Virus record (IMG/VR): IMGVR_UViG_3300045988_162372
Length of the DNA stretch: 64,000 nucleotides
Strand: one strand, 5' to 3'
DNA from: a virus
A program made the translations under genes and the position numbers. The notes below the pieces were generated by a model. It saw only the letters and a list, made by a program, of their open reading frames with translations. It was not told the DNA's origin and searched no databases. Below, piece by piece: positions 918-21,195 of this stretch (positions are counted from its first letter, which is position 1; each line of letters starts with the position of its first letter).

Positions 918-925
918 TATCTTTG
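918..925 (+). promoter_or_regulatory. -7 promoter box TAnnTTTG (drives sRNA copy A)
   Basis: TAtcTTTG on + strand with no ORF downstream. Confidence 0.55.
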
Positions 926-930
926 TAATG

Positions 931-1059
931 TGAAAAGGAAAACAGGTAGGCAAAGGTAAAACTTTGAAGTATTGTCTCCTTTAGAGCTAATCTATAATTG
1001 TTATCATATATTAAAAATACCTTACCAACATTAAAGTCAGTAAGGTATTACTTTTTTTT
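931..1059 (+). ncRNA. candidate sRNA, family copy A
   Basis: Promoter 918-925; hairpin CAAAG-GTAAAA-CTTTG 951-966; tail AAGTATTGTCTCCTTT 967-982; terminator 1018-1059; no ORF. Confidence 0.5.
1018..1059. terminator. rho-independent terminator (bidirectional position)
   Basis: Stem ATACCTTAC/GTAAGGTAT then T8; sits between sRNA A (+) and gene 1071-1316 (-). Confidence 0.7.
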
Positions 1060-1070
1060 CTTTTAGAGCT

Positions 1071-1316
1071 TTACAGATACAAATTTATCCATCTTGAAAT
1101 AGCTTCACTTTGCGTCAAATCATGTCTGTTATATATGGCATTTATTTCGTCTATGACGTTATCTGCCTCATCACCTTGAAAATAATATGATTCATTCTCA
1201 TCATTGATATTCTCAAAATAAGCATAAGACAAAGATGTATTTATTTCAACGTTGAAACCGTTTACATCTTTATATTTGCCGTTAAGCCACGTAGGGGAAA
1301 GCATTTCTTTATTCAT
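1071..1316 (-). CDS. hypothetical protein (81 aa)
   Basis: ORF track; promoter box 1344-1351. Confidence 0.7.
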   Translation of the reverse strand: MNKEMLSPTWLNGKYKDVNGFNVEINTSLSYAYFENINDENESYYFQGDEADNVIDEINAIYNRHDLTQSEAISRWINLYL

Positions 1317-1343
1317 ATCTATATTGTTTTAATTATTACACCA

Positions 1344-1351
1344 CAAAGGTA
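1344..1351 (-). promoter_or_regulatory. -7 promoter box TAnnTTTG
   Basis: rc = TAccTTTG upstream of ATG 1316. Confidence 0.6.
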
Positions 1352-1400
1352 CAAAAAATAAATGAAACCTCCAAGTTAATGGAGGTTAATCATTTGTTAA

Positions 1401-1673
1401 TTATGCCTTAATAAAGAAGATAGGATATTTGCCCCGTTCATTATCACAATTATAATAACGGTAGTCATTGATTACATTCTCAAATGTACTATCGTAAACA
1501 TCTTTGTTTTTATTTATAGGACACGGCGACTGCCACATATTATTAGGGCGCATATTGCAAGAAAGTAAATAAACCGTTTCTCCACGTTCATAAGCGTTTT
1601 TAGCGGCTATTTTATTCACTTGCTTTACTTTTTCACCATACATTTCCAAAACTTCACCTTTGTAACGTAACAT
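1401..1673 (-). CDS. hypothetical protein (90 aa)
   Basis: ORF track; promoter box 1721-1728. Confidence 0.7.
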   Translation of the reverse strand: MLRYKGEVLEMYGEKVKQVNKIAAKNAYERGETVYLLSCNMRPNNMWQSPCPINKNKDVYDSTFENVINDYRYYNCDNERGKYPIFFIKA

Positions 1674-1720
1674 ATCTTTTGAATTTTATTTGTTAGACAT
1701 CTTTGTTTTTTATCACAGTG

Positions 1721-1728
1721 CAAAGATA
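1721..1728 (-). promoter_or_regulatory. -7 promoter box TAnnTTTG
   Basis: rc = TAtcTTTG(CA) upstream of ATG 1673. Confidence 0.65.
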
Positions 1729-1860
1729 ACACATTTATTTGAATTCACCAAGCGTTTTCCAGTTTTAACATTAAATTAACCATCTAATATATTTCTGTTA
1801 AACAATGTTATAGCAAAGGAAATTCTATCTGAAAAATTTTGTAGTATGGAAAATTATCAC

Positions 1861-1868
1861 TACCTTTG
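1861..1868 (+). promoter_or_regulatory. -7 promoter box TAnnTTTG (drives sRNA copy B)
   Basis: TAccTTTG; upstream about 30 nt near-identical to promoters at 21291 and 46726. Confidence 0.55.
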
Positions 1869-1873
1869 TAGTG

Positions 1874-1990
1874 TAAAAAGAAAGATAGGGCAAGAGTGAA
1901 ATCTTGAAGTATAATCTCCTTTACGGCTTATTTTTTATAGTTATTGAATATTAAAAAATCCTCAACAATGTTACTTGCCGAGGATTTCTT
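1874..1990 (+). ncRNA. candidate sRNA, family copy B
   Basis: Hairpin CAAGA-GTGAAA-TCTTG 1891-1906; tail AAGTATAATCTCCTTT 1907-1922; hairpin AATCCTC/GAGGATT 1957-1986 + T-rich; no ORF. Confidence 0.5.
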
Positions 1991-2003
1991 GCGTTAAGGC
2001 TTA

Positions 2004-2294
2004 TTAAGCCTTTTTCACATATCTATGCAAACTATCTGCACACATTGGCACGTTATTTGCAGGTATTACGTTTTCATTACGCAAAGCATAACGAAGGTAG
2101 TATTGATGGCGACTTGTTGAAACGCTGTATTTTGTTTCATTCATAATAAAGTTGTAATACCCACGTTCATTTACAAAACGCTCACAAATACAAGTATTGT
2201 AAGAATATAGACGGTTATTGAATATCCGCATATTGCTTCCGTTACCTTCGTTTGCACCATTCACGAATCTTTCACACAAAACTGAATTTTTCAT
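2004..2294 (-). CDS. hypothetical protein (96 aa)
   Basis: ORF track; rc AGGAGG upstream; promoter box 2352-2359. Confidence 0.7.
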   Translation of the reverse strand: MKNSVLCERFVNGANEGNGSNMRIFNNRLYSYNTCICERFVNERGYYNFIMNETKYSVSTSRHQYYLRYALRNENVIPANNVPMCADSLHRYVKKA

Positions 2295-2351
2295 AATTGA
2301 AACCTCCTATTTTATTCGTTAGACTATTTGTTTTATTTCCTAATTGCACTG

Positions 2352-2359
2352 CAAAGGTA
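2352..2359 (-). promoter_or_regulatory. -7 promoter box TAnnTTTG
   Basis: rc = TAccTTTG(CA) upstream of ATG 2294. Confidence 0.65.
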
Positions 2360-2513
2360 GTGAATCCATTTGATATATGCAAATTTTCAGATAGAAATTT
2401 TCTCTAAATAAACATCTTTTAAGATTTATGGTTTGTTTCGTTAAATGGATTTGGCTTATCTGCAATAAATGTGAAATGATGTAAAATTATTTGGCGAATT
2501 CAATTTTTCTTCT

Positions 2514-2521
2514 TACCTTTG
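2514..2521 (+). promoter_or_regulatory. -7 promoter box TAnnTTTG
   Basis: TAccTTTG with TTTG at 2490-2493 (-33 position); upstream of ATG 2553. Confidence 0.65.
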
Positions 2522-2552
2522 CAGCGTTGAAACAATAAAACAAATATAAGAT

Positions 2553-2762
2553 ATGAAACAGATAAACAGATATTATTTAGTGTTTGGTGTATGGTGTGTA
2601 ATACTTGCTTATGCAGTATTTTTCAGCAATAACGTGTATTTTAACGCTATTTTACTTTTCTTTGGTTTTCTTGGATGTGTAACGGCTTATGCCTACATTG
2701 ACGAACATGAAAATGAAAAGGAACGCAAATTTAGTGAAAAAATTGTTAATTTGCTTGGATAA
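2553..2762 (+). CDS. small membrane protein (69 aa, 2 hydrophobic helices)
   Basis: ORF track; hydrophobic segments LVFGVWCVILAYAVFF and AILLFFGFLGCVTAYAYI. Confidence 0.65.
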   Translation: MKQINRYYLVFGVWCVILAYAVFFSNNVYFNAILLFFGFLGCVTAYAYIDEHENEKERKFSEKIVNLLG

Positions 2763-2777
2763 TTCAAATAAAATGAT

Positions 2778-2785
2778 TATCTTTG
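2778..2785 (+). promoter_or_regulatory. -7 promoter box TAnnTTTG
   Basis: TAtcTTTG(CA); AGGAGG at 2803-2808; ATG 2817. Confidence 0.65.
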
Positions 2786-2816
2786 CAACGTAATTAAAAC
2801 ATAGGAGGTAACAAAC

Positions 2817-3029
2817 ATGAAAACAAATTTTTATGTAACCGCAAGTGATAAGGTTTGGGGCGACAAGTTGATCGCCGCTTGTAATAGCCATCAAAAAGCT
2901 CAAGAAATCTTTGATAAGTGGCAAAACCGTAGTGACTTGAAATATGTCAACATACGTTCCACAAAACCGTATTACAAAAAATACGTTATGTATGATGAAA
3001 ACCTTATAGAAATAGAATCTTGTCATTAA
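2817..3029 (+). CDS. hypothetical protein (70 aa)
   Basis: ORF track; strong SD; own promoter. Confidence 0.7.
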   Translation: MKTNFYVTASDKVWGDKLIAACNSHQKAQEIFDKWQNRSDLKYVNIRSTKPYYKKYVMYDENLIEIESCH

Positions 3030-3077
3030 AAGATGTTAAAACATTGGTAAGGATTTGGTTATTTCAAACTTTTTCCT

Positions 3078-3085
3078 TACCTTTG
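3078..3085 (+). promoter_or_regulatory. -7 promoter box TAnnTTTG
   Basis: TAccTTTG upstream of ATG 3132. Confidence 0.6.
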
Positions 3086-3131
3086 TAGAGTAAAAATCAA
3101 AAATCTAACAATCTAAAAATAGATAAGAATT

Positions 3132-3653
3132 ATGGCAACTGGAAATTTTTGTTACGAAAACCGTTGTGTGGTAGTTACAGATGGTGACTACGAAATGGAT
3201 AATCTTCCCGAAATAGGAGAGTGTGTGGATAACTCACGTAATTACCCGTCATATTTGATAGAAGAATTTGAGTTTTGGGATGTTGTCCTAACCGCAGGAT
3301 ATTACGAAGGTGCTTGCATTGACTATATTGAGCATCACAAACATAGCCCTTATGATGTAGTGCAGGGATATATCGGTTATCCTTCTACAAAAAAAGAACT
3401 CTTTAAGGAATGTAAAGAAGCATTCGGTCTGTCAAGACTGAAAATGCAAGCTATTTGCGGAAACGTCGGAGATATGGATATTGATGACTATGTTGAGAAA
3501 GCAACTGAAAAGGTAGGGGAATATCTTGCCGAAAAAGAAGAAAAGGAGGTAAATGAATATATTGACAAGCTGAAAGAAGAATATGGATATGAAGAAGTTT
3601 GCAGAGTTGCAACTTTCAGCAACGGCGAAACAATCTACCGAAAAGTAGGGTAA
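3132..3653 (+). CDS. hypothetical protein (173 aa)
   Basis: ORF track; own promoter. Confidence 0.7.
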   Translation: MATGNFCYENRCVVVTDGDYEMDNLPEIGECVDNSRNYPSYLIEEFEFWDVVLTAGYYEGACIDYIEHHKHSPYDVVQGYIGYPSTKKELFKECKEAFGLSRLKMQAICGNVGDMDIDDYVEKATEKVGEYLAEKEEKEVNEYIDKLKEEYGYEEVCRVATFSNGETIYRKVG

Positions 3654-3692
3654 GAGAAGTAAACATGGGGTAGGGTGAAAATCCCTATCCTA

Positions 3693-3708
3693 TGTACTCA
3701 AATGAGTT
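3693..3708 (+). repeat. dyad motif TGTACTC-N4-GAGTA, copy 1
   Basis: TGTACTCAAATGAGTT, 40 nt after stop of 3132-3653. Confidence 0.8.
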
Positions 3709-3759
3709 CTATTAACATTGTTTAACTAAAAATAATTTGGTAAACACATAGTTTGTTTT

Positions 3760-3767
3760 TATATTTG
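3760..3767 (+). promoter_or_regulatory. -7 promoter box TAnnTTTG
   Basis: TAtaTTTG(CA) upstream of ATG 3785. Confidence 0.6.
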
Positions 3768-3784
3768 CAATGTAATTAAAAGAT

Positions 3785-4090
3785 ATGATTATGAAAGAAA
3801 AGAAATTACCTATTATATTTTATGTTGTTTCATTAGGGTTTGCCTACAAAGATAATTATACTATATGTTTTAATGCTAAAGAAATCAAAAATGCGTTGGA
3901 TAAGTATATTAAGGTTGGGGAAAACACTAATAATGATATCATAATAAAGGTATATCGAATCGAAAATAGACATATACTTGAGGATTTTTCTAGAAGAAAA
4001 TTTGTAGAATTGTATCTTTCAGATGTAAATTATTTTAGTAATGGTTTAAAACATATTGAAGAGATAAGTATAAATTTGAATGAAGAATAA
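3785..4090 (+). CDS. hypothetical protein (101 aa)
   Basis: ORF track. Confidence 0.65.
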   Translation: MIMKEKKLPIIFYVVSLGFAYKDNYTICFNAKEIKNALDKYIKVGENTNNDIIIKVYRIENRHILEDFSRRKFVELYLSDVNYFSNGLKHIEEISINLNEE

Positions 4091-4096
4091 AGGTGT

Positions 4097-4112
4097 TGTA
4101 CTCAAATGAGTA
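4097..4112 (+). repeat. dyad motif TGTACTC-N4-GAGTA, copy 2
   Basis: TGTACTCAAATGAGTA, 7 nt after stop 4090. Confidence 0.8.
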
Positions 4113-4163
4113 TCAAATAACATTTATTAACGATAAAAATTTGGTTATATCAAGATAAAGTAT

Positions 4164-4171
4164 TAACTTTG
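4164..4171 (+). promoter_or_regulatory. -7 promoter box TAnnTTTG
   Basis: TAacTTTG(CA) upstream of ATG 4202. Confidence 0.6.
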
Positions 4172-4201
4172 CAGTGTCGAACGAAAAAAGATAATAAAGC
4201 A

Positions 4202-4372
4202 ATGGAAGAAAGAGATTATATTATCATTAGAGAGAACGGCAAACCTTTGACTTTCAAGGACGGACAGACGGTTGTCTATGGGAGTTATGAAGAGGCTAAG
4301 GACGATTTATGCAAGACTGACCTTTGCATTATGCCCTTGGAAGACTATAACAAGATTATCAATAAACATTAA
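4202..4372 (+). CDS. hypothetical protein (56 aa)
   Basis: ORF 4169-4372 trimmed to first ATG downstream of the promoter box, which lies inside the longer call. Confidence 0.6.
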   Translation: MEERDYIIIRENGKPLTFKDGQTVVYGSYEEAKDDLCKTDLCIMPLEDYNKIINKH

Positions 4373-4391
4373 TAAAATAGGAGGTAATAAT

Positions 4392-4664
4392 ATGAAAGTG
4401 TATGTCATTGTAAGTAACGAGAATAATTTGGGTGAGTTGACTACAAATTGCGAAGGTGTGTTCCTGTCAAAAGACAAGGCGTTGGAACAACTCAAAAAGA
4501 ACGGGGAAGACCTTATGAATGATGAGGATTTTACAGATGAGGAATATGACAAGTATGTGGACGAAGATTGTAATGACTTCAACTTCACGGCAATGAACAA
4601 GGATAACGGTGAAATTGAATATACAATGTATCAATGCGTCCTTGAAAAGGAAATAACCGAATGA
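4392..4664 (+). CDS. hypothetical protein (90 aa)
   Basis: ORF 4272-4664 trimmed to the ATG preceded by TAGGAGGT; N-terminus MKVY... resembles 16187-16393. Confidence 0.65.
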   Translation: MKVYVIVSNENNLGELTTNCEGVFLSKDKALEQLKKNGEDLMNDEDFTDEEYDKYVDEDCNDFNFTAMNKDNGEIEYTMYQCVLEKEITE

Positions 4665-4666
4665 TA

Positions 4667-4682
4667 TGTACTCAAATGAGTA
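4667..4682 (+). repeat. dyad motif TGTACTC-N4-GAGTA, copy 3
   Basis: TGTACTCAAATGAGTA, 3 nt after stop 4664. Confidence 0.8.
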
Positions 4683-4767
4683 TGGTATTCTATTTTTTAA
4701 CGAACTTGAAGAAAAATATTTAGCAAAATTTCAATTTTATTGGCTTGCAATTAACAATTAAATTCAC

Positions 4768-4775
4768 TAATTTTG
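4768..4775 (+). promoter_or_regulatory. -7 promoter box TAnnTTTG
   Basis: TAatTTTG(CA) upstream of ATG 4804. Confidence 0.6.
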
Positions 4776-4803
4776 CAACGTCAAACAAAAAGATAATAAG
4801 ACT

Positions 4804-4974
4804 ATGGACAAGAGATTTGTATATGTAACGGTTAAGATGGAAATCACTAATCCAAACAAGGAGGTTATCACGGACGAGGATATCGAAAATGTTATCAATG
4901 ATGTTGACTACAACTTCAATGATGTGGATGATTTTCATATCAATACTGAAATTGTAGATTATGAATGCAACTAA
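4804..4974 (+). CDS. hypothetical acidic protein (56 aa), not in ORF track
   Basis: Hand translation MDKRFVYVTVKMEITNPNKEVITDEDIENV...VDYECN*; own promoter; the minus ORF 4720-5010 covering it looks spurious. Confidence 0.5.
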   Translation: MDKRFVYVTVKMEITNPNKEVITDEDIENVINDVDYNFNDVDDFHINTEIVDYECN

Positions 4975-4988
4975 ACACAAAGAATAAT

Positions 4989-5258
4989 ATGATGATATTT
5001 GTAATAACACTTTCAGATAAGAAATTTGATGAGAAATACAGAAATTTCTGTTATAAGAATCTCACATCACTCACAAAGCAATTTAGGGGCGATCTGGAAG
5101 ACTATCTTGATGATATGGATGATTACCTTACCGATAAGGATGAAAAGGAACTAGACGAACTTATTTCACGTCTAACAAAAACTTCAAGTGTAGGCAAAAC
5201 TATGAAATTAAAAGGTCTTGGCATTGAATTCACCTTAAGGAAAGAGGATTTGAAATAA
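4989..5258 (+). CDS. hypothetical protein (89 aa)
   Basis: ORF 4965-5258 trimmed to ATG after the stop of the preceding ORF. Confidence 0.55.
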   Translation: MMIFVITLSDKKFDEKYRNFCYKNLTSLTKQFRGDLEDYLDDMDDYLTDKDEKELDELISRLTKTSSVGKTMKLKGLGIEFTLRKEDLK

Positions 5259-5312: not shown

Positions 5313-5317
5313 CAGTG

Positions 5318-5586: not shown

Positions 5587-5660
5587 GGGCCTGTAACTCA
5601 GTCGGTAAGAGTAACTGACTCATAATCAGGAGGTCGCAGGTTCAAGCCCTGCCAGGCCCA
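5587..5660 (+). tRNA. tRNA with CAU anticodon (elongator Met or Ile2/lysidine type)
   Basis: Hand-folded cloverleaf: acceptor GGGCCTG/CAGGCCC, D stem ACTC/GAGT, anticodon loop CTCATAA, T stem GCAGG/CCTGC, T loop TTCAAGC, A73; no encoded CCA. Confidence 0.9.
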
Positions 5661-5665
5661 CACAA

Positions 5666-8906: not shown

Positions 8907-9812
8907 ATGAGTCATTTCGCAGTTATGGTCATCGGAGATAATGTTGAAGAACAACTATCAAAGTATGATGAAAACATTAAAGTAGAGGAATATTGTAAGG
9001 GAGAAGTTACAGAAGACGAGAAGAAGTGCATGATCGAATATTACGAGCGTGAAAAGGGTGAAACATTCAATAGCTTCGATGAATGCTATACAAGGTACGG
9101 GAAAGATTGGAATGATAACCGTTACAGAAAAGATACAGACGGTAAGTGGAAAGTATATAGCACATACAACCCTCTTTCAAAATGGGATTGGTGGCAAGTC
9201 GGAGGTCGTTTCTCTGGTGCATTTATCACTCATATCAAAAAGGATGTAAAGGTTTCAGATGAAAATTACGGAGAGCCTTCGTGGTGTACAAAAGAGATTG
9301 GAGTTGACCGCATTGAAAAGAAACATATTGATTTTGAAGCAATACGCAAGGATGCTGAAACTGATGCAAGAGAACGCTATCGTAATATTGCGAGATTGTT
9401 TAAGAATGGAGAAATACCAAAGGTAGGCATGACTTGGGCAAAGGTATGTGAATTGTTCAAAGATAAAACTTTGGATGAAAAACGGAATATCTACAATGCA
9501 CAAACGGCTGTCATTGAATGGAACAAAGCAAGAGAAGAGGATAAAAATAGTACTTCACCCGTACTTGGTTTCTTTACAAGTATTGAGGATTACCAAATGA
9601 GTGAAGAAGAATATGTCAAGAAAGCTGGTGATGAATCTTTTGTTCCCTTTGCAGTTGTCAAGGATGGTAAATGGTATGAGCGTGGAGAAATGGGATGGTG
9701 GGCAATGGTAGCCAACGAAAAAGAGCCAACAGAATGGAATGAAATTGTAAGGAAATTGTTAGATGAAACTGACGATGATGAAATGATAACATTTGTTGAT
9801 TGTCATATTTGA
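8907..9812 (+). CDS. hypothetical protein (301 aa)
   Basis: ORF track; SD; motif WDWWQVGGRF; family not recognised. Confidence 0.75.
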   Translation: MSHFAVMVIGDNVEEQLSKYDENIKVEEYCKGEVTEDEKKCMIEYYEREKGETFNSFDECYTRYGKDWNDNRYRKDTDGKWKVYSTYNPLSKWDWWQVGGRFSGAFITHIKKDVKVSDENYGEPSWCTKEIGVDRIEKKHIDFEAIRKDAETDARERYRNIARLFKNGEIPKVGMTWAKVCELFKDKTLDEKRNIYNAQTAVIEWNKAREEDKNSTSPVLGFFTSIEDYQMSEEEYVKKAGDESFVPFAVVKDGKWYERGEMGWWAMVANEKEPTEWNEIVRKLLDETDDDEMITFVDCHI

Positions 9813-9936: not shown

Positions 9937-11037
9937 ATGAAAGATATAAAGCAACACTTAAATGTATTAATGTATGATCTTACATTGAAAAAGATAGAAG
10001 ATGTTAAAATCGGTGACTTATTAATGGGTGACGATGGTACATATAGAAGAGTAATAAGTAAAACAAATAAATATGGTAAGATATATAATATACATCAAAC
10101 TAGTGGGGAAGATTATTTTACAAATGGTGAACATACGCTTGTATTAAAAAAATCGGAAACTGCCAAGAGGCCATACGGTAATATAACGAAAAAAGGTACA
10201 CTTCGACATCCTAATGGACGATTGGCATCTTATGAGGATTATGAAAATATGAATATAATAGATTTTTTGCAAAAATCACTTACATTTAGAGAAAATTTTT
10301 TCACTTTTAAACCTACAACAATTCATTGTGAAGAAAAAGAAGTGTATATTGATCCTTATCTCCTGGGTATTTGGTTAGGAGATGGTTCTGCTCGTAATAC
10401 TTCAATAATCTCAATGGATGATGAAATTATTAAGTACATATATGAGTATGCAGACAAAAATAATTTATCTGTGAATAAACTTGAACGGGATTGGGAAAAA
10501 GCTGATGTATATAAATTAAATAGACCACTTGTTAATAGGACAAGGAAGAATGAGCTTCTAGAAAATTTACGAAAATATAATTTAATAAATAATAAACACA
10601 TTCCACAAGAATATATAAATAATAGTGAAAGAGTTAGAATTGAATTAATGGCAGGATTAATAGATACAGATGGCAGTTTGTCTAAAAATAACGTTTATGA
10701 ATTTTATCAAAAATCGTATGATTTTATACGAGATGTTAAAATAATTGCGGATTCTTTAGGATTTAGAACAAGTTTACGTGAAAAGAAAAATTGTATTTGT
10801 AATGGAAAAAATTATGGAACACATTATAGATTAAGTATAAGCGGAGATTTATGGAGAATACCGTGTAAAGTGAAAAGAAAAAAGGTAACAAAAGATATGT
10901 TAAGCAAAAATAAGGATTGGAGAGTTTCAATGATTAAACCTATTGAAATAGGGGATGGCGAATATACTGAAATAAAAGTTGATGGAAATGGAAACTATTT
11001 ATTAGGTGACTTTACAATAGCACATAATTCGATATAG
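9937..11037 (+). CDS. free-standing intein-like (Hint + LAGLIDADG) homing endonuclease
   Basis: Intein blocks: VLMYDLTLKKIEDVKIGD (A, Cys1 replaced by Asn), TNGEHTLVL (B), LLGIWLGDGS and LMAGLIDTDGS (two LAGLIDADG), EIKVDGNGNYLLGDFTIAHNS (F/G); no promoter box; more AT-rich than neighbours. Confidence 0.8.
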   Translation: MKDIKQHLNVLMYDLTLKKIEDVKIGDLLMGDDGTYRRVISKTNKYGKIYNIHQTSGEDYFTNGEHTLVLKKSETAKRPYGNITKKGTLRHPNGRLASYEDYENMNIIDFLQKSLTFRENFFTFKPTTIHCEEKEVYIDPYLLGIWLGDGSARNTSIISMDDEIIKYIYEYADKNNLSVNKLERDWEKADVYKLNRPLVNRTRKNELLENLRKYNLINNKHIPQEYINNSERVRIELMAGLIDTDGSLSKNNVYEFYQKSYDFIRDVKIIADSLGFRTSLREKKNCICNGKNYGTHYRLSISGDLWRIPCKVKRKKVTKDMLSKNKDWRVSMIKPIEIGDGEYTEIKVDGNGNYLLGDFTIAHNSI

Positions 11038-11041: not shown

Positions 11042-11746
11042 ATGAATCAAATAGACATTAGAAAAATAGTTAATGAATGTATCTCTGCTTTAAAAGAGAG
11101 ACATTGTATAATTCAAGAAAATAGACTCGTAACATTTGGTAAAAGAGTATATCCTAATAGTGGGTGGTGTATTTTTTTAACAGGTGGTTCTGGATGTGGA
11201 AAAGGCTATACACTTAATAATCAACTTCCAATCAACGGAAAAGTTATCAATGTTGACCATTGGAAGAAAACCTTTGCCAAAATGAATAATATTGACTATG
11301 ATAGCCATGACCCAGAACAAGTAAGTCAATTACATAAAGCAATTGCAGATAAGGGTTATAAGGAGAAATATATAAACAATCTTTTTAACCCACAAGCACA
11401 CAATAGCAAAGACAGATTACCAAACATTATCTTTGACATTACAGGAAAAAATCCCTACCATGATGTCTTGGATATTGCGCAGGACGCACAAGACTTAGGA
11501 TATAAGACAATGCTTGTATGGGTAGTTGCGACAAGAAGTGAAGCAATACTAAGAAACTTGAAAAGGGATAGAAAGGTTCCAGATTCAGTCTTTCACTCAA
11601 TACACAATATGATATTGGACAATATGCCACGTTTCCTGCAAGGAAGTTATGCCACAGAGTGTTTGGATGATGCTTGGCTTATATTTTCTTCCGCCCCGAT
11701 ATTTCCAGAGGTGATTTGGAGGGTGATGAAAAGAAAACAGCCGTAG
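11042..11746 (+). CDS. P-loop kinase, zeta-toxin-like fold (N-terminal part of an apparently frameshifted gene)
   Basis: Walker A GGSGCGKG; GYKTMLVWVVATRSEAILRNLKRDRKVP resembles the zeta-toxin family C-terminal motif. Confidence 0.6.
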   Translation: MNQIDIRKIVNECISALKERHCIIQENRLVTFGKRVYPNSGWCIFLTGGSGCGKGYTLNNQLPINGKVINVDHWKKTFAKMNNIDYDSHDPEQVSQLHKAIADKGYKEKYINNLFNPQAHNSKDRLPNIIFDITGKNPYHDVLDIAQDAQDLGYKTMLVWVVATRSEAILRNLKRDRKVPDSVFHSIHNMILDNMPRFLQGSYATECLDDAWLIFSSAPIFPEVIWRVMKRKQP

Positions 11747-13313: not shown

Positions 13314-13394
13314 GCTATATTTTGTTTTGTTGTTTCTTAACATCCCGTTAATACCATTTAACATAAAAGTTTTGGTTAAACGGGATTTTTTGTG

Positions 13395-13402
13395 TACCTT
13401 TG
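13395..13402 (+). promoter_or_regulatory. -7 promoter box TAnnTTTG (drives sRNA copy C)
   Basis: TAccTTTG, no ORF downstream. Confidence 0.55.
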
Positions 13403-13406: not shown

Positions 13407-13610
13407 GTTGAAAGGAAGGAGATATTCAACGAAGCAGAAGTAAAATTCTGAAGTATAGTTTCCTTTATAATTAAAAATAATTTCTTAATAATATTGAAAA
13501 TAAAATAAGAAATGTATATATTTATTTTTGAATTAATTTCTCAGAGATTATACATAAATATATTAATGCAAGGAAGGAACGGTTCGTGATGAATAGTTCC
13601 TTTCATTTTT
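13407..13610 (+). ncRNA. candidate sRNA, family copy C
   Basis: H1 CGTTGAA/TTCAACG 13406-13431 with purine loop AGGAAGGAGATA; H2 CAGAA-GTAAAA-TTCTG 13435-13450; tail AAGTATAGTTTCCTTT; terminator AAGGAAC/GTTCCTT 13574-13602 + T-run. Confidence 0.55.
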
Positions 13611-13669
13611 GTTAACATTCAATTAACTTCTTTTCACATAAAATATTTGGTTATTCCAGTCTAATCTAT

Positions 13670-14038: not shown

Positions 14039-14081
14039 CTTCTATTAACTTGAAAAATTTGCTGGTTCAAAAAAGAATCAT

Positions 14082-15330: not shown

Positions 15331-15396
15331 GTATATATTATCTTTTATTTTCACCTACTTTAACTGAATAAATTTGGTTAGAGTAGGTTTTTTGTG

Positions 15397-15404
15397 TATC
15401 TTTG
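15397..15404 (+). promoter_or_regulatory. -7 promoter box TAnnTTTG (drives sRNA copy D)
   Basis: TAtcTTTG(CA), no ORF downstream. Confidence 0.55.
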
Positions 15405-15408: not shown

Positions 15409-15457
15409 GTCAATAAGAGATAGGAGCAATGGTAACACATTGGAGTATATTCTCCGT
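15409..15457 (+). ncRNA. candidate sRNA, family copy D (divergent; 3' end undefined)
   Basis: CATTG...CAATG-GTAACA-CATTG 15427-15442 (alternative pairings possible); tail GAGTATATTCTCCGT. Confidence 0.4.
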
Positions 15458-15553
15458 CATAATTAATTGAAAATTGTTAATAAGTGTAAAATTTCAGATG
15501 GAAATTACAACATCTTTTAACTGGGAAAATTTGTCTGTTCCAAATAAAAGTAT

Positions 15554-15561
15554 TATCTTTG
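15554..15561 (+). promoter_or_regulatory. -7 promoter box TAnnTTTG
   Basis: TAtcTTTG(CA); SD TAGGAGGT; ATG 15609. Confidence 0.65.
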
Positions 15562-15608: not shown

Positions 15609-16115
15609 ATGGTATACGATTTGAAGTATGGAACGTTGAGAGACTTGATTGAAAATAATAAATTCAACCCTCACGAAACAAATTGCGGTAGGGCTATTAT
15701 AGAACTCTGTGGAACGTTTAATGAGGTTGTAAATAAAAGTTGTCAGCCGAGACATATTGTAAGTGTTCTTTTGGATTATAAGGAAAGAAAACCTAATAAG
15801 CTATCAGAGACAACCGTAGATAATCTTGAAAGGGTTTGTTTGGTTATGTATGATAAGTTTGGCGGTAGTTTTTATTATATAAACAAAGAAAATTTATTAG
15901 AGGGCAACAAAATACCTTACCGTGCAGATTGGGTGAAAAATGTAAAATTGGAAGATTTAAGCAGATGGCAGCATTTCGGACTTGGCGGTACTGAATTTGT
16001 TTTGAGGGATTATCCCGATACAGCAGGTATGCTTTTAACTTGCCGTAATCTTAGAACACATAATGATGTGAAATTTGAAAAGGATATAATTGTTGAACAA
16101 TTATATTTTGATTAA
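15609..16115 (+). CDS. hypothetical protein (168 aa)
   Basis: ORF track; SD. Confidence 0.7.
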   Translation: MVYDLKYGTLRDLIENNKFNPHETNCGRAIIELCGTFNEVVNKSCQPRHIVSVLLDYKERKPNKLSETTVDNLERVCLVMYDKFGGSFYYINKENLLEGNKIPYRADWVKNVKLEDLSRWQHFGLGGTEFVLRDYPDTAGMLLTCRNLRTHNDVKFEKDIIVEQLYFD

Positions 16116-16886: not shown

Positions 16887-17057
16887 ATGAGGAACTATTT
16901 TAAGGCTTTGCTTGGCATTATTTTAGCGTTGGTAATAGGAACTATTCCCTTATGGGTAAAAGTCGAATATAACGGCACAGAGGTCGTATTTATAATGGTT
17001 GCAATGTTTATTGGCATTCCGTCTTTGGTGGTGTACTTTAATGAAATGTTCAAATAA
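16887..17057 (+). CDS. small membrane protein (56 aa)
   Basis: ORF 16836-17057 trimmed to ATG after GGAGAGGAGGG; two hydrophobic helices. Confidence 0.6.
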   Translation: MRNYFKALLGIILALVIGTIPLWVKVEYNGTEVVFIMVAMFIGIPSLVVYFNEMFK

Positions 17058-17063
17058 TAAGTT

Positions 17064-17357
17064 ATGGAAAAAATTTGTAACAAATTGATATTTTTAACAG
17101 TTTTTATTGTATTTAAAATACCAATCAGAATTATAGGTTATATTTTATTTGGATTGTTGTATGTTTCGCCAATTTTAATCTATATTGCAATGAATTTCTT
17201 TCTGATTGCACATGTATTCTTAGGTGGTGTTCTTCATAAACCTAGTTCATACGAAACAGGGTCATTAGTGTTTTATTATATATTCTGTTTTTTGTATGTA
17301 ATAGCAGATATTCTTTTTACACTTTATGGTTTAAAATATCTATTTAGAAAGAAATGA
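17064..17357 (+). CDS. membrane protein (97 aa)
   Basis: ORF track; three hydrophobic segments. Confidence 0.65.
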   Translation: MEKICNKLIFLTVFIVFKIPIRIIGYILFGLLYVSPILIYIAMNFFLIAHVFLGGVLHKPSSYETGSLVFYYIFCFLYVIADILFTLYGLKYLFRKK

Positions 17358-17668
17358 GAAAGTTTACAAAAGAACACAATGAAATTGGGTGGCTGTTTCC
17401 TTCAGTACTTCCCGAAGATAACCCCGAAGAGGATTTCAATACCTTTGAGGAAAGGGGAAAATTTTTGTTTGAAGAAGCCTATCAAGACAAAGAAGCATTC
17501 ACTAAGGATGATATGATGGACGCTTTTATGAAAGGCTGTTCAGTGGCGCAGCAACATCTGTCTGAAAAATATGGATATATGATACATACCGTATTGGATG
17601 AAACAAAGCGAAATAGAGAGATAATGAAAGACGTGAAGGAAATTCTTTCTTCTATTAATTCTATTTAA
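17354..17668 (+). CDS. hypothetical protein (104 aa)
   Basis: ORF track; ATGA overlap with upstream gene. Confidence 0.65.
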   Translation: MRKFTKEHNEIGWLFPSVLPEDNPEEDFNTFEERGKFLFEEAYQDKEAFTKDDMMDAFMKGCSVAQQHLSEKYGYMIHTVLDETKRNREIMKDVKEILSSINSI

Positions 17669-17724
17669 CAATAAAAACTTGTATTTCTTTAACAAGAAAA
17701 ACTTGTATAATCCAAATAAAAGCA

Positions 17725-17732
17725 TTACCTTT
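17725..17732 (+). promoter_or_regulatory. -7 promoter box TAnnTTTG
   Basis: TAccTTTG(CA); SD TAGGAGAT; ATG 17777. Confidence 0.65.
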
Positions 17733-17776
17733 GCAGTGTAATAAGAAATAAATAAAACAATAGGAGATTATAAGTT

Positions 17777-18040
17777 ATGAACAAGCAAGAAATTCTGAAT
17801 GAACTTATCATTAAGTTGAATGATTATCCTTTCATCTTGTTTGATGATGCTGTTGAGATGCCGAGTTTGAACAACTCAATCAAGGAATTTAGCGGTGGAG
17901 ACCCAATATGGGAGGATATGTCCGACGATGATATTGAATTGGAAGATGCGTCAGAAGATGATTTGGCAAATCTTCTGTATTGGATAGACGCACAGATTGA
18001 GCGTGATGACAAACTGATGGATAGATGTCAAGGTTGGTAA
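17777..18040 (+). CDS. hypothetical acidic protein (87 aa), paralog of 40144-40410
   Basis: Shared C-terminal pattern DDL..LLY.I..QIE.D..LM..C..W. Confidence 0.7.
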   Translation: MNKQEILNELIIKLNDYPFILFDDAVEMPSLNNSIKEFSGGDPIWEDMSDDDIELEDASEDDLANLLYWIDAQIERDDKLMDRCQGW

Positions 18041-18069
18041 AAACAAATACAAATTAGAATAATAAAATC

Positions 18070-18639
18070 ATGGGACAATATTATAGACCCGTCGTATTGA
18101 AAGAGGATTACGAGAACGAGAATTTTCCTTGTATCTTGTCACTTACTTCTTGGGATATGGGTAATGGTGCAAAACTGATGGAGCATTCCTATGTTGGAAA
18201 CAACTTTGTGGAGGCATTTGCGCAGATTATCCACAAGAATAACACAAAAGGTTATGCAGATAACCGTGTAGTATGGTGTGGCGATTATGGTGAACCTATA
18301 AACGATAATAGTATTTACCATCTTGCGAAACATTGTGATGCGTCGGAATTTTATCTTGAGAAATATACAGATGGAGTACAGCGTCCTTATCAATACATTG
18401 TGAATACTGATAAGGAACAATATGTCAAGGTCAAGCCTTATAATGAAAATGAGTGGACTATTCACCCGTTACCCTTGCTCACAGCCTACGGAAACGGACA
18501 AGGTGGTGGTGATTATTATGGCAGTGATATGGATAAGGTAGGAATTTGGGCATTTGACCATGTTTATACATCTGACGAAGTGCCAGAGGGATATGAAGAA
18601 CTTGTAGTTGATTTCAAGGAAGATACAGAAGAGCCTTAA
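18070..18639 (+). CDS. hypothetical protein (189 aa)
   Basis: ORF track. Confidence 0.7.
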   Translation: MGQYYRPVVLKEDYENENFPCILSLTSWDMGNGAKLMEHSYVGNNFVEAFAQIIHKNNTKGYADNRVVWCGDYGEPINDNSIYHLAKHCDASEFYLEKYTDGVQRPYQYIVNTDKEQYVKVKPYNENEWTIHPLPLLTAYGNGQGGGDYYGSDMDKVGIWAFDHVYTSDEVPEGYEELVVDFKEDTEEP

Positions 18640-18697
18640 AAATTGTTTCGTCTGAAAAATAGTTGGGTTATTATTTGGATAATCCAATTATTTTTCT

Positions 18698-18705
18698 TAC
18701 CTTTG
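18698..18705 (+). promoter_or_regulatory. -7 promoter box TAnnTTTG
   Basis: TAccTTTG(CA); SD AAAGGAGAT; ATG 18758. Confidence 0.65.
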
Positions 18706-18757
18706 CAGAGTGATAAAGAAAAAGATATATAACTAACAATCAAAGGAGATTAAAGCT

Positions 18758-19258
18758 ATGAGTTACGAAAAAGTAAAGTCAGTAAGATTTTTTTCAGATG
18801 ATAACATCATTCTTGAAAGTGTGTCAAACAACGTTTCCCCTAAAAAGTACCACAAATGGAAATTTACTGGAACTCTTATTGATTTCCTTAGATATGTGCA
18901 AGGAAGTGAATTGCAAATAACCACAAGCGCAAATGGCTACTTTTGGTCTGCATTATTTGCTATGTATTACAAGACGCTTAAAGCGCAAAACATTGAATAT
19001 TCAGACCTTTATTCCTTAGATAAGGACGACCCTAGATGGGATGATATTATCAAGACATTTCATATTGCAATGAACTATCTGAAAGCAAACAGAAACAAGA
19101 AATGCTATGTCAAAAATGGTAGTTTTTATATCGCAGGTAGAGCATACGGCGGTAAATATTACCTTGTTGAGAATAAAGAGGACGCAAAGAAATATCCTTA
19201 TTGTCAAGCAAGGTATATGTCAGAAAATAATGATTGGATTTTTGAAGAAGCGAGATAG
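18758..19258 (+). CDS. hypothetical protein (166 aa)
   Basis: ORF track; SD. Confidence 0.7.
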   Translation: MSYEKVKSVRFFSDDNIILESVSNNVSPKKYHKWKFTGTLIDFLRYVQGSELQITTSANGYFWSALFAMYYKTLKAQNIEYSDLYSLDKDDPRWDDIIKTFHIAMNYLKANRNKKCYVKNGSFYIAGRAYGGKYYLVENKEDAKKYPYCQARYMSENNDWIFEEAR

Positions 19259-19297
19259 AATATAATAACTTGATTTTTTGTACGTGTACTCATTTTA

Positions 19298-19339
19298 GCT
19301 TCCCATCCGTTGTGATAATGTGTGGGAAGCACTTTTTTA
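19298..19339 (+). terminator. rho-independent terminator
   Basis: Stem GCTTCCCA/TGGGAAGC then T6. Confidence 0.75.
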
Positions 19340-19407
19340 TTAACATTATTTAGAAATTAATTAAGACTTATTATTTGAAATAATTTTCCTATATCAAATT
19401 TTATTGC

Positions 19408-19415
19408 TATCTTTG
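19408..19415 (+). promoter_or_regulatory. -7 promoter box TAnnTTTG (drives sRNA copy E)
   Basis: TAtcTTTG(CA), no ORF downstream. Confidence 0.55.
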
Positions 19416-19419
19416 CATT

Positions 19420-19479
19420 GTGATTGAGAAAGAGATAATCACAGAAGCAGATATAATAATCTGAAGTATAATCTCCTTT
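19420..19479 (+). ncRNA. candidate sRNA, family copy E (3' end undefined)
   Basis: H1 TGTGATT/AATCACA 19419-19443, loop GAGAAAGAGAT; H2 CAGAT-ATAATA-ATCTG 19448-19463; tail AAGTATAATCTCCTTT 19464-19479. Confidence 0.55.
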
Positions 19480-19574
19480 GGATATGAACTGAAATTGTTA
19501 ATGTTTCTAAAATCAATTAACATCATTTTACAGAAAATAATCAGCCAAACTATTGCATATATCAAAAACTTTAT

Positions 19575-19582
19575 GTACCTTT
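19575..19582 (+). promoter_or_regulatory. -7 promoter box TAnnTTTG
   Basis: TAccTTTG(CA); SD TAGGAGGT; ATG 19637. Confidence 0.65.
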
Positions 19583-19636
19583 GCAACGTCAAAAGGAACA
19601 AAGAACAAATTAAAACAATTAGGAGGTAAAAACAAT

Positions 19637-19930
19637 ATGGCAACAAAACAAGGCAAGGAACTTCTACAAGCTATCAGAAACACAAAAAAATGTGCAATGA
19701 GAGATGCGTATGACTATATGCTTTACCTTGCGGATGATGGTACTTACGCAATAACCAGATTATTCGGTGAGCCTACAAATTGGTATTTATGGGACTTAAA
19801 GGAAATTATAGGTTTTGCAACCTATGATTATTCAACGAAGTCTGCAAGGTATTTCAGTATGACAAACCGAAGCAAGGAGGCTAAGGCATTTTGTGAGAGA
19901 CTAATCAATAAAAATCATATCAAATATTAA
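19637..19930 (+). CDS. hypothetical protein (97 aa)
   Basis: ORF 19553-19930 trimmed to ATG after promoter and SD. Confidence 0.7.
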   Translation: MATKQGKELLQAIRNTKKCAMRDAYDYMLYLADDGTYAITRLFGEPTNWYLWDLKEIIGFATYDYSTKSARYFSMTNRSKEAKAFCERLINKNHIKY

Positions 19931-19944
19931 AAAATACATACATT

Positions 19945-20388
19945 ATGACTTCATACGAAAAATCAAACAGCATACTTGAGGTTGCATTGAAACGCTTTTC
20001 AAGCTCTTATAGCCACGATTTTCTTTCAAGTGATACAAGTATCAAGGATAGGGAGAAAAACGCACAGAAACTCGTGGATTATCTTTGCGACAAGTTTAAG
20101 ATACCACATTGCTATGTTATTATCTCAAACAAGCGTCAAAATCACGTTACAAGGAACGGTAAACTTATCAAGAAAGTATACGGCAGATATATGATAAATC
20201 TTAACACTATCGAGATTTTCAACCTTACTGCAATGACGAGGAAACCAGTTGCAATTAAGACAATGTACGATACATTATTGCATGAGTTTATGCACCACTA
20301 TGATTACACCAAACTGAAACTATCCGAAAGTTTGCATACCAAAGGTTTTGCAATGAGAATTTCAGATTTGAAAAAGAAGTTGAATTAA
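19945..20388 (+). CDS. SprT-like zinc metalloprotease-domain protein
   Basis: HExxH in TLLHEFMHHYD near the C-terminus, SprT/WLM-like context. Confidence 0.5.
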   Translation: MTSYEKSNSILEVALKRFSSSYSHDFLSSDTSIKDREKNAQKLVDYLCDKFKIPHCYVIISNKRQNHVTRNGKLIKKVYGRYMINLNTIEIFNLTAMTRKPVAIKTMYDTLLHEFMHHYDYTKLKLSESLHTKGFAMRISDLKKKLN

Positions 20389-20416
20389 TGAACAACTTTA
20401 AAAACTTAATAAGGAT

Positions 20417-20689
20417 ATGGAAAGCAAGAATTTTTCAGCAATGAATTTTGAGGAACAAGTAACTTTGCTTTATGATTTGGCAGACGGATGGAATATACTT
20501 CACGCTAAACTTGTTTTTAAGGTAATTCTAAACGCTATCAAAGCCGTTGGGTATAGTTATACCTATCAAAAAAATTTAGCCATTAAAACACTTAAATCAA
20601 TGCTTAATGACGTTGAAGAAAAATATGGGATAGAGTCCGCTCAATACAGGGAAATAGCAATTTTGTATCATATTATATTAAAAGGATAA
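20417..20689 (+). CDS. hypothetical protein (90 aa)
   Basis: ORF track. Confidence 0.65.
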   Translation: MESKNFSAMNFEEQVTLLYDLADGWNILHAKLVFKVILNAIKAVGYSYTYQKNLAIKTLKSMLNDVEEKYGIESAQYREIAILYHIILKG

Positions 20690-20695
20690 TGCCGT

Positions 20696-21055
20696 ATGGA
20701 AAAGAAATATATCAAAGCAAATATAGACGAGAAAAACGTAACAAGTGATTGGATATTTGATTATGTATTGGATGATAGAAATGATATATCCGTTTCAACA
20801 AGAATTCCATCAGACAAAGGAAACTCTTTTATTGGTGTGTATAGAAATAGTGTAGTAAACGCATATTGGAAAGCAACCGACAATAAGGTAACATTCAAAT
20901 TCCTACATACGCTTACTACAACTGCAAATGATAGTGACATGGATAAGTTATATCATTTCTTGTTGGAGGATTTCAATGATGATAACCTTGTAACGAGAGT
21001 ATCTCAAGTAGATGATACCACCATCGTAGTAAAGTTTTATTGGAAAGAAGAATAA
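20696..21055 (+). CDS. hypothetical protein (119 aa)
   Basis: ORF track. Confidence 0.65.
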   Translation: MEKKYIKANIDEKNVTSDWIFDYVLDDRNDISVSTRIPSDKGNSFIGVYRNSVVNAYWKATDNKVTFKFLHTLTTTANDSDMDKLYHFLLEDFNDDNLVTRVSQVDDTTIVVKFYWKEE

Positions 21056-21087
21056 ATATCATTTAACATATTTATTTAGCTTTATTA

Positions 21088-21120
21088 ACGCCCGAAATTC
21101 TTTATTGGGCGTTTTATTTT
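21088..21120 (+). terminator. rho-independent terminator
   Basis: Stem ACGCCC/GGGCGT then T-rich run. Confidence 0.7.
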
Positions 21121-21121
21121 G

Positions 21122-21129
21122 TATCTTTG
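21122..21129 (+). promoter_or_regulatory. -7 promoter box TAnnTTTG (drives sRNA copy F)
   Basis: TAtcTTTG(CA), no ORF downstream. Confidence 0.55.
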
Positions 21130-21133
21130 CAAT

Positions 21134-21195
21134 GTGAAAAAGGAAAGATACCTATCACAGAAGCAAAAGTAACATTTTGAAGTATAGTCTCCTTT
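21134..21195 (+). ncRNA. candidate sRNA, family copy F (3' end undefined)
   Basis: H1 TGTGA/TCACA 21133-21159, loop AAAAGGAAAGATACCTA; H2 CAAAA-GTAACA-TTTTG 21164-21179; tail AAGTATAGTCTCCTTT 21180-21195. Confidence 0.55.

Follow-up and report, generated by a model that had tools for sequence, protein, structure and literature searches.

A stretch of 64,000 nucleotides from the virus record IMGVR_UViG_3300045988_162372 of the IMG/VR database (hereafter the window) contains, between positions 918 and 21,195, six loci (A to F) at which a promoter box is followed by a small hairpin and a short linear sequence. An earlier note, made from the sequence of the window, had described them as a family of promoter-driven RNAs devoid of open reading frames (ORFs). 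These loci raise two questions, whether they are copies of one RNA gene and what such an RNA would do for the phage. The answer to the first is that the six loci are true copies of one small non-coding RNA gene family, which is phage-borne, previously undescribed and probably one of Bacteroidales phages. For the second, several readings have to be weighed.

Six copies in the window and a family beyond it

The six copies share a common layout, in which a TAnnTTTG promoter is followed by a leader rich in purines, by a hairpin of 5 bp closing a 6-nt loop and by the tail RAGTATWNTYTCC, each copy lying 16–34 nt downstream of its box (Table 1). When the 64 kb were scanned with a covariance model trained on 62 family members, we recovered exactly these six copies, all of them on the + strand and at the places given by the earlier note, with scores of 60.7–71.8 bits; since the next best match reached only 15.6 bits, this list is complete. 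The tail motif RAGTATANTYTCC matches the window nine times with at most one mismatch, for 1.6 matches expected, and the + strand matches (n = 6) start at 967, 1907, 13451, 15443, 19464 and 21180. TAnnTTTG boxes are frequent in the window as a whole (39 for 8.4 expected) and mostly read TAYCTTTGYA. TAnnTTTG is the −7 element of the primary sigma factor of Bacteroidota. The canonical sigma-ABfr promoter (TTTG / TAnnTTTG) has been described for small RNAs (sRNAs) of Bacteroides (PMC11697453).

Stems and loops read in all six copies exactly as first reported. The tail sequence proposed as conserved proved less general, TCTCCTTT being restricted to copies A, B, E and F, whereas copy C has TTTCCTTT and copy D TCTCCGTC; copy A reads TATTGT where TATANT is expected. 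The additional 5' hairpins of copies C, E and F are present, but as an optional feature of some copies and not as a trait of the family. No + strand ORF of more than 25 codons starts between the promoter and the end of the conserved block in the six window copies. For copies A, B and C the label "ORF-less RNA" is safe; no GC-rich terminator separates copies D, E and F from the next gene, and their transcripts may also read through into it. Terminator-like hairpins do follow copies A, B and C, but the T-run of the one after copy B is on the minus strand, so that this hairpin (1956–1987) is the terminator of gene 2004–2294(−), possibly a bidirectional one. The absence of a known RNA family was borne out as well: no family of Rfam 15 passed the gathering threshold over the six copies, the scan of the whole window passing tRNA-Met only, and at E ≤ 10 copies E and F and a consensus-type copy from a related locus (L190; such loci are designated by L numbers) gave only chance matches of at most 20 bits.

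The family extends well beyond the window. A structured pattern (promoter, gap and tail) detected about 20 homologous copies in IMG/VR contigs of 40–380 kb; such patterns were used instead of the 15-mer tail alone, which gave mostly chance single matches. To avoid circularity, IMG/VR was also scanned for the tail followed by N18–22 and GTTAA, leaving hairpin and promoter unspecified. At a spacing of 20, a perfect 5-bp hairpin plus a TAnnTTTG box accompanied 54 of the 58 matches, whereas at spacings of 18, 19, 21 and 22, corresponding to chance matches, the hairpin was present in 1 of 93. Promoter, hairpin, tail and GTTAA thus form one unit. A metagenome scan that fixed the loop frame and AGTAT, but imposed nothing on the three inner pairs of the stem or on the final seven positions of the tail, yielded at least 119 loci from human gut and rumen, on contigs of up to 398 kb. 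Among the matches listed, 170 of 172 distinct copies had a completely paired stem, three pairs of which the pattern left open, and a TAnnTTTG promoter preceded 158 of 169. In total, the search of related contigs recovered at least 258 distinct copies on uncultured phage contigs from human gut and rumen, with at least 10 distinct copies in one contig of 220 kb and 6 in another of 12.6 kb.

Cellular genomes gave a very different picture, with only seven matching stretches in 185,579 bacterial and archaeal species genomes (one per species). Six of them are on small phage-like contigs of metagenome-assembled genomes (MAGs) and the seventh is a match by chance in an archaeon, on a contig of 104 kb. 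Five copies lie on short contigs of one yak-rumen Paludibacteraceae MAG, and further true copies were found on a 19-kb contig of a Muribaculaceae MAG from buffalo cecum and on a 2.5-kb contig of a Clostridium MAG. The element was absent from 50,697 GenBank phages searched with blastn; megablast of 22 kb and tblastn of a 402-aa ORF retrieved no element and only promoter-like matches to Bacteroides phages, and in the searchable literature 12-mers taken from the tail or from its complement turned up nothing but unrelated primers.

The family consensus is RGG-[YANNN-GURANA-NNNUR]-RAGUAUAGUCUCCAACACR, followed by about 12 A/U-rich nucleotides and (U)GUUAA, and preceded by a variable, purine-rich leader of 16–34 nt between the TTTG of the box and the stem. 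Four of the five stem pairs covary (UA/CG; AU/GC/UA; GC/AU/GU/UA; AU/GC/UA), the second pair, A-U, being invariant. Double-change cells number 104 versus 28 ± 6 in shuffles, and registers slid by 1–3 columns show only 27–54% pairing. The covarying hairpin of the earlier note is thereby upheld. Because the stems contain 54 G·U versus 2 A·C, it is the promoter-sense strand that is under selection, as expected for an RNA. The hairpin is modestly stable (mean −2.9 kcal/mol). The stem is followed by RAGUAUA and not by a run of U; where the tail was left free, the matches listed have W7 as A155/T10/G5, N8 as G114/A28/T28 and never C, U9 in 170/170, Y10 as C142/T20/A8, U11 in 167, C12 in 168 and C13 in 170, and the positions past C13 favour AACAC(A/G). 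Of 40 copies retrieved with no requirement for GTTAA, 30 have it exactly 20 nt past the tail, as do 214 of 258 copies overall. Besides the tail, loop positions U10, A12 and A14, the invariant lower stem (Y4-R19, A5-U18) and G3 are conserved.

No additional covarying column pairs, hence no further helices, were detected in the family alignment. Loop positions G/A9-U10-R11 could pair with the invariant U23-A24-U25, an invariance that leaves no covariation to see. Several other readings of the element were discarded. A mini-hairpin GAG-UAUANU-CUC within the tail needs G at position 20, found in about 37% of copies, and is unconserved; a mini-ORF in the loop (GUG/AUG...UAA) conflicts with most loops, which begin with GUA or AUA; and a promoter or gene on the minus strand fails since minus-strand TAnnTTTG occurs only with CAAAN stems and minus-strand GGAGA has no start codon after it. 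As judged by eye, the positions that define ECF, sigma-54 or sigma-70 −10 sequences in hairpin or tail, or mimicry of a tRNA anticodon arm or a sarcin-ricin loop, are not the conserved ones.

Some relatives depart from the consensus. The locus L237 909–967 retains promoter, hairpin, GGAGTATAGT, AACAC and GTTAA at +20 with AGAC replacing CTCC, and may be a decaying or variant copy. Extra conserved blocks follow some copies: L121 (~1995–2030) and L144 (~4775–4810) share a hairpin CTATCCTC(A/T)CGGACTGAA, and L253 (~2830–2900) and L259 (~3000–3070) share a GC-rich block of about 60 nt, ACGTATGCCCAAAGGGGGT...GCAGCCAACACCTTCTCCTCTGCGACCTCTGCGGGG.

Genomic context of the copies

Both neighbours are visible for 205 copies, among which 133 are co-directional with them, 38 are opposite to both, 23 stand at a divergent junction and 11 are convergent. 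About a quarter (49/205) face an opposite-strand gene. Opposite-strand copies, which include A and B of the window and many in L121, L122, L126, L144, L196, L244, L255 and L259, are placed back-to-back with the promoter of the leftward gene, the −7 boxes being 123–140 bp apart, and have 40–80 nt past the tail a GC-rich, often bidirectional terminator common to the convergent gene. Since they end at a terminator facing opposite genes, they cannot be gene leaders. In L074, two elements occur in tandem with no gene between them, and the proteins flanking the copies show no paralogy. From these three observations, the element behaves as its own gene.

The co-directional copies, represented by D, E and F in the window, are organized as a cassette composed of a first promoter (P1), the element, GTTAA at +20, one to three TTAAC at +38 to +61, a second promoter (P2) and the gene. 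Copy C is also co-directional, yet it differs in having a 3' extension and a terminator of its own, and the next promoter (13670) is about 207 nt past its tail. This extension of about 150 nt, ahead of the terminator, is conserved in L047 and gone from L135.

The GTTAA found 20 nt past the element is an inverted copy of a promoter-associated TTAAC. Of some 50 window promoters, about 26 carry this TTAAC exactly 37 nt before the first letter of TAnnTTTG (for example at 13358–13362, 14045–14049, 15360–15364 and 46689–46693), often with a repeat 10–11 bp further upstream. TTAAC looks like an upstream promoter element peculiar to the phage, or like a site for a DNA-binding factor. At 15353–15404 and 13350–13402, gene-end terminator hairpins overlap the −33 of the next promoter, with the T-run as spacer.

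Table 1. Features of the six copies and of their surroundings, in window positions; bits are covariance model scores
Feature	Position	Strand	Score or energy
Copy A, −7 box TATCTTTG	918–925	+	
Copy A, core: AGG, stem CAAAG/CTTTG (951–955/962–966), loop GTAAAA (956–961), tail AAGTATTGTCTCC (967–979)	948–979	+	65.0 bits
Copy A, terminator hairpin (1016–1049) and T8, bidirectional, common with convergent gene 1071–1316(−)	1016–1060	both	
Copy B, −7 box TACCTTTG	1861–1868	+	
Copy B, core: GGG, stem CAAGA/TCTTG (1891–1895/1902–1906), loop GTGAAA, tail AAGTATAATCTCC (1907–1919)	1888–1919	+	64.6 bits
Hairpin AAATCCTC...GAGGATTT 3' of copy B, T-run on minus strand	1956–1987		
Copy C, −7 box TACCTTTG	13395–13402	+	
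Copy C, optional 5' hairpin CGTTGAA/TTCAACG, purine-rich loop	13406–13431	+	
Copy C, core: AAG, stem CAGAA/TTCTG (13435–13439/13446–13450), loop GTAAAA, tail AAGTATAGTTTCC (13451–13463)	13432–13463	+	65.5 bits
Copy C, 3' extension AGAGATTATACAT, 10-bp complement of its own tail, best complement in window	13543–13555	+	−13.2 kcal/mol
Copy C, terminator GGAAGGAAC...GTTCCTTTC (hairpin 13572–13605) and ATTTTTG	13572–13611	+	
Copy D, −7 box TATCTTTG	15397–15404	+	
Copy D, core: GAG, stem CAATG/CATTG (15427–15431/15438–15442), loop GTAACA, tail GAGTATATTCTCC (15443–15455)	15424–15455	+	66.6 bits
Copy D, GTTAA, exactly 20 nt past tail	15476–15480	+	
P2 after copy D, −7 box 98 nt past tail, drives gene 15609–16115	15554–15561	+	
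Copy E, −7 box TATCTTTG	19408–19415	+	
Copy E, optional 5' hairpin TGTGATT/AATCACA	19419–19443	+	
Copy E, core: AAG, stem CAGAT/ATCTG (19448–19452/19459–19463), loop ATAATA, tail AAGTATAATCTCC (19464–19476)	19445–19476	+	60.7 bits
Copy E, GTTAA, 20 nt past tail, pairs with TTAAC 19517–19521, then ATCATTTT	19497–19501	+	
P2 after copy E, 99 nt past tail, drives gene 19637–19930	19576–19583	+	
Copy F, −7 box TATCTTTG	21122–21129	+	
Copy F, optional 5' hairpin TGTGA/TCACA	21133–21159	+	
Copy F, core: AAG, stem CAAAA/TTTTG (21164–21168/21175–21179), loop GTAACA, tail AAGTATAGTCTCC (21180–21192)	21161–21192	+	71.8 bits
Copy F, GTTAA, 20 nt past tail, pairs with TTAAC 21233–21237, then GTCTTTT	21213–21217	+	
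P2 after copy F, 98 nt past tail, drives gene 21328–21633	21291–21298	+	

Possible modes of action

We give a probability of about one half to the proposal that the members of this family are small RNAs that act in trans and bind one fixed partner through their hairpin and tail. The host RNA polymerase, carrying the primary sigma factor of Bacteroidota, would initiate at TAnnTTTG early in infection, and the transcript would consist, in this order, of a short purine-rich leader, RGG, the 5-bp stem with its G(URAN)A hexaloop, RAGUAUAGUCUCCAACACR, about 12 A/U-rich nucleotides and GUUAA. With 6 to more than 10 dispersed genes providing a high early dose, this RNA would accumulate and act in trans, the hairpin and the invariant 13–19-nt single strand serving as the recognition site of the partner.

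As for the kind of partner, we tentatively favour a protein, for which the RNA would be a decoy, a sponge or a ribonucleoprotein scaffold, because a bare antisense seed needs no conserved loop, lower stem, G3 or GUUAA. At N8, G is preferred over A; this, together with the conserved loop and lower stem, the RGG flank and the fixed GUUAA, looks more like protein recognition. Seed pairing to a conserved RNA is our second choice and a rather doubtful one; most of the changes at W7 and Y10 would still allow pairing, by wobble, with a fixed complement, which is a pointer in that direction. Candidate protein partners may be encoded by two adjacent genes located 3.6 kb beyond copy F, 24799–25293 (KH_2, E 1e-6) and 25320–25724 (Phage_ProQ_C_like PF24203, E 3e-7), whose products are putative RNA-binding proteins. 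A bolder version seems improbable when all its parts are taken jointly: this would be the first high-copy sRNA family of Bacteroidota phages usurping a conserved host function, in which the near-invariant 19-nt strand would pair with a host RNA of about 5'-GUGUUGGAGAYUAUACU-3', or titrate an RNA-binding protein or a defence nuclease, a phage-specific TTAAC/GTTAA factor would set the 3' end of the RNA, and the lineage of the window would later have co-opted the UCUCC tail together with genes led by Shine-Dalgarno (SD) sites to manipulate the SD-blind Bacteroidetes ribosome.

A number of observations weigh against a trans-acting RNA with one fixed partner. The window shows no enrichment in sequences complementary to the tail (123 versus 106 expected with at most three mismatches), and about 290 kb of related phage loci contain some 5 true complementary sites for 7 expected. 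A Bacteroidales rpsF-rpsR-rplI operon pairs with the tail through GGAGG only, and the E. coli rRNA operon, a weak test, gave nothing above shuffled tails. Predicted accessibility of the tail is 0.53, versus 0.51 with shuffled flanks (p 0.16). The start site and the 3' ends of the RNA are placed by consensus motifs. The KH and ProQ-like genes are tied to the element by proximity alone, and a close homologue of the ProQ-like protein was found in one related contig only, IMGVR_UViG_3300013383_000073, in a single-protein scan that reached one close relative and says little on linkage. Finally, about 65% of copies point in the direction of the next gene with no GC-rich terminator in between, so that many transcripts may run into mRNAs, and in these copies the next −7 box is stereotyped at 96–99 nt past the tail, a fixed spacing that a purely trans model leaves unexplained. 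In the window, the 3' extension of copy C harbours the best complement of the tail, followed by the ribosome-binding site of gene 17777; the window tRNA-Met has no specific complement to the tail. Bacteroidia keep strong SD sites on rpsR (PMC7797042).

The nearest known system in design is FopS/GibS of Bacteroides, which likewise comprises many dispersed paralogous sRNA genes. There are 14 such genes in B. thetaiotaomicron, each with a sigma-ABfr promoter, and the RNAs have a conserved single-stranded stretch, a terminator hairpin and an RNA-binding protein partner, RbpB (PMC11697453). The present family shares the promoter, TAnnTTTG being 16–34 nt before every window hairpin, but differs in being phage-borne and absent from host genomes, whereas FopS/GibS are encoded by Bacteroidaceae or their mobile elements, use a 5' seed and have no conserved 5-bp hexaloop hairpin. 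The FopS model of Rfam (R1 seed, single-stranded 5' stretch) has no match here, the conserved stretch of the present family being 3' of the hairpin. Phages also produce RNA decoys, such as RNA anti-CRISPRs, made of solitary repeat units, and the pseudo-ToxI repeats of antitoxins; the known ones act by dose and bind protein by means of a hairpin and the bases beside it, and the present RNAs resemble them in being promoter-driven, ORF-less, short and structured. However, mimics of one repeat would be uniform, whereas the stems here vary between copies, and no CRISPR or antitoxin repeat with the sequence of the element was found among full matches to the hairpin-plus-tail pattern in the 185,579 species genomes.

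The fixed geometry of the co-directional cassettes keeps another reading in play, that of a cis-acting co-transcriptional signal, in which the nascent hairpin and the 13-nt stretch, close behind the polymerase, would pause it or load a factor, in the manner of nut, put or ops, and so control termination or read-through at later sites; GTTAA, 20 bp downstream, could then be the DNA site of a roadblock protein. In rrn leaders, the boxB hairpin precedes boxA (core (G/U)CUCUUUA), and nut/rrn boxB is a promoter-proximal 5-bp hairpin with a purine-rich GNRA-like loop and a variable stem beside a conserved linear element; their order of promoter, hairpin and conserved linear element is that of the present element, which is always 16–34 nt past its promoter. 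The spacings to GTTAA (214/258) and to the next promoter resemble constraints of polymerase footprint or DNA geometry, TTAAC/GTTAA recurs as a DNA motif with a fixed place at −37 of the phage promoters, 65% of copies are co-directional with downstream genes and terminators follow many of them. We nevertheless hold this reading to be rather unlikely. In the quarter of copies aimed at opposite-strand genes, read-through would produce antisense RNA only; a second full promoter stands after each co-directional copy and makes the downstream gene independent of the element transcript; and the tandem elements of L074 have no gene between them. The likeness to boxB-boxA is one of layout, with a hexaloop here and a linear element directly after the stem; the family tail AGUAUAGUCUCCAACAC is not a boxA, UCUCCUUUA being confined to the window lineage. 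No NusG-, N- or Q-like family appears among the best 25 of the 34 Pfam families found with the 112 window ORFs. An H-type pseudoknot aptamer of the preQ1-I kind would pair its tail with the loop or the leader and sit upstream of a regulated gene; here the loop and tail positions able to pair show no covariation, leader-tail pairing is not specific to cognate partners, Rfam gave no match and a quarter of copies have no downstream gene.

The earlier note had drawn attention to another feature, the resemblance of the tail UCUCCUUU to the 3' end of 16S rRNA, and suggested that it could pair with the ribosome-binding sites of the phage and, through a possible pseudoknot, with the purine-rich leader. 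The RNA would then pair with GGAGA(U) sites or replace the 16S tail, gated by the pseudoknot. Bacteroidota ribosomes normally ignore SD sites. Yet 21 of 107 genes in the window have GGAG 4–22 nt before the ATG, mostly as GGAGAT or GGAGGT, a 10-nt match to the tail is found at the site of gene 17777, and U9 of the tail is able to pair with A or G. Since the Bacteroidetes ribosome sequesters its anti-SD and tolerates a C-to-U change at position 1535 (PMC7797042), SD use would be a plausible lever for a phage. This reading nonetheless appears very doubtful to us and anti-SD activity could at best be a secondary use in one lineage. GGAG sites also precede 4/11 genes in L047 and 5/20 in L135, but none in relatives carrying the identical tail (0/26 in L189, 0/20 in L190, 0/19 in L237, 0/20 in L196, 0/19 in L126, 0/14 in L124, 0/14 in L143 and 0/13 in L141), and the sites of host rpsR and rplI match through GGAGG only. 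The 16S-like tail itself belongs to the window lineage: after UCUCC most copies of the family have AACACR and not UUU, and only (U)CUCC is shared with the anti-SD. By comparison with the 16S 3' end (CCUCC, then UUUCU, after the hairpin of helix 45), the core is UCUCC with U or A possible at Y10, the hairpin is a 5-bp stem with a hexaloop and 9 nt separate the stem from CUCC. Cryo-EM of the Bacteroidetes ribosome shows contacts of the sequestered anti-SD with A1534, U1537, C1538 and U1541–U1544 (PMC7797042); here, the equivalent of A1534 is the variable N8, and U1541–U1544 have no conserved counterpart, there being no conserved U-tract.

The leader-tail pseudoknot did not hold either, cognate duplexes (−4.3 kcal/mol) being no better than non-cognate ones (−4.4; permutation p 0.9) and worse than those of shuffled leaders (−5.3). 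Many copies, among them a whole lineage, have A-rich leaders essentially without tail complementarity, and in the close orthologues of copy C in L047 and L135 the 5' hairpin is kept but its loops mismatch the tail, loop and tail changing without compensation. About 20% of window genes have a strong SD (GGAGAT or GGAGGT, 6–10 nt before ATG), for instance upstream of 5803, 14144, 15609, 17777, 18758, 19637, 24799, 41531 and 55691; these sites are odd beside Bacteroidota-type promoters, and more distant relatives have none.

Two further explanations would dispense with a functional RNA. According to one, which we judge quite improbable, the element acts as DNA, being a PeSL-like regulatory repeat that favours recombination or shuffling, a hairpin-type promoter or origin, or an operator for a DNA-binding protein. 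The window intergenic regions are indeed built of composite terminator/promoter modules like PeSL, the short repeated modules of host-type early promoter and stem-loop found among ORFan genes in plastic regions of T4-type phage genomes (PMC2839356, PMC4122927); the elements too lie among ORFan genes, with no Pfam match in the 39 ORFs tested in the first 23 kb, and their spacings to GTTAA and to the next promoter are exact. In PeSL, however, the stem-loop is a terminator attached to the promoter and conserved in sequence (PMC2839356, PMC4122927), whereas the present hairpin is downstream of the promoter, lacks a U-tract, covaries and is followed by an invariant 13–19-nt sequence, and the PeSL-like modules of the window are ordinary gene junctions distinct from the element. 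Homologous recombination needs no compensatory changes in an unconserved stem, and the excess of G·U over A·C reveals selection on one strand, the one transcribed from the obligatory promoter. According to the other explanation, the loci are non-functional remnants, the promoter and 5' end of an ORF lost from duplicated cassettes, and their leaders do resemble those of neighbouring coding genes, with a AAGAGATAA-type motif soon after the promoter. This is extremely improbable and effectively refuted by the conservation pattern: 258 distinct copies retain pairing, loop and tail while their flanks diverge, no copy contains an ORF and the neighbours are not paralogous.

Other genes of the window and significance of the family

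None of the 39 ORFs tested, out of 42 called in the early region (1–23000), has a Pfam match at E ≤ 1e-4. ORF 11042–11746 has a weak Zeta-toxin/kinase-like match; between it and ORF 8907–9812 lies a free-standing ORF (9937–11037) with Hint and LAGLIDADG homing-endonuclease domains. The remainder of the window contains a TnpB / IS605 OrfB-type gene (35875–37095; HTH_OrfB_IS605, OrfB_IS605 and Cas12f1-like zinc-ribbon domains) and genes for a nicotinate phosphoribosyltransferase (57957–59159), an ADP-ribosylglycohydrolase (59170–59976) and, by a probable ORF assignment, a Met-tRNA formyltransferase-like protein (62084–63127). The tRNA-Met gene is at 5587–5661, and an RNA ligase and a tRNA-ligase CPD-like domain are encoded within 26–63 kb.

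Large uncultured Bacteroidales phages are abundant in gut and rumen, and nearly all genes of their early regions are without known relatives. With 6 to more than 10 copies in a genome, each under its own strong host-type promoter, this structured RNA is probably a major early product of such phages, and its 13–19-nt sequence is nearly unchanged over more than 250 copies from human and ruminant samples. Bacteroidota have no Hfq, mostly ignore SD sites, and their RNA-based regulation is little known; we know of no small RNAs from phages of Bacteroidota. What is described here is a new family of phage small RNAs with a strongly supported structure, not yet a new principle. With a consensus, a covariance model, clear boundaries and candidate KH/ProQ-like partners, it offers a practical entry point into the RNA biology of Bacteroidota phages.

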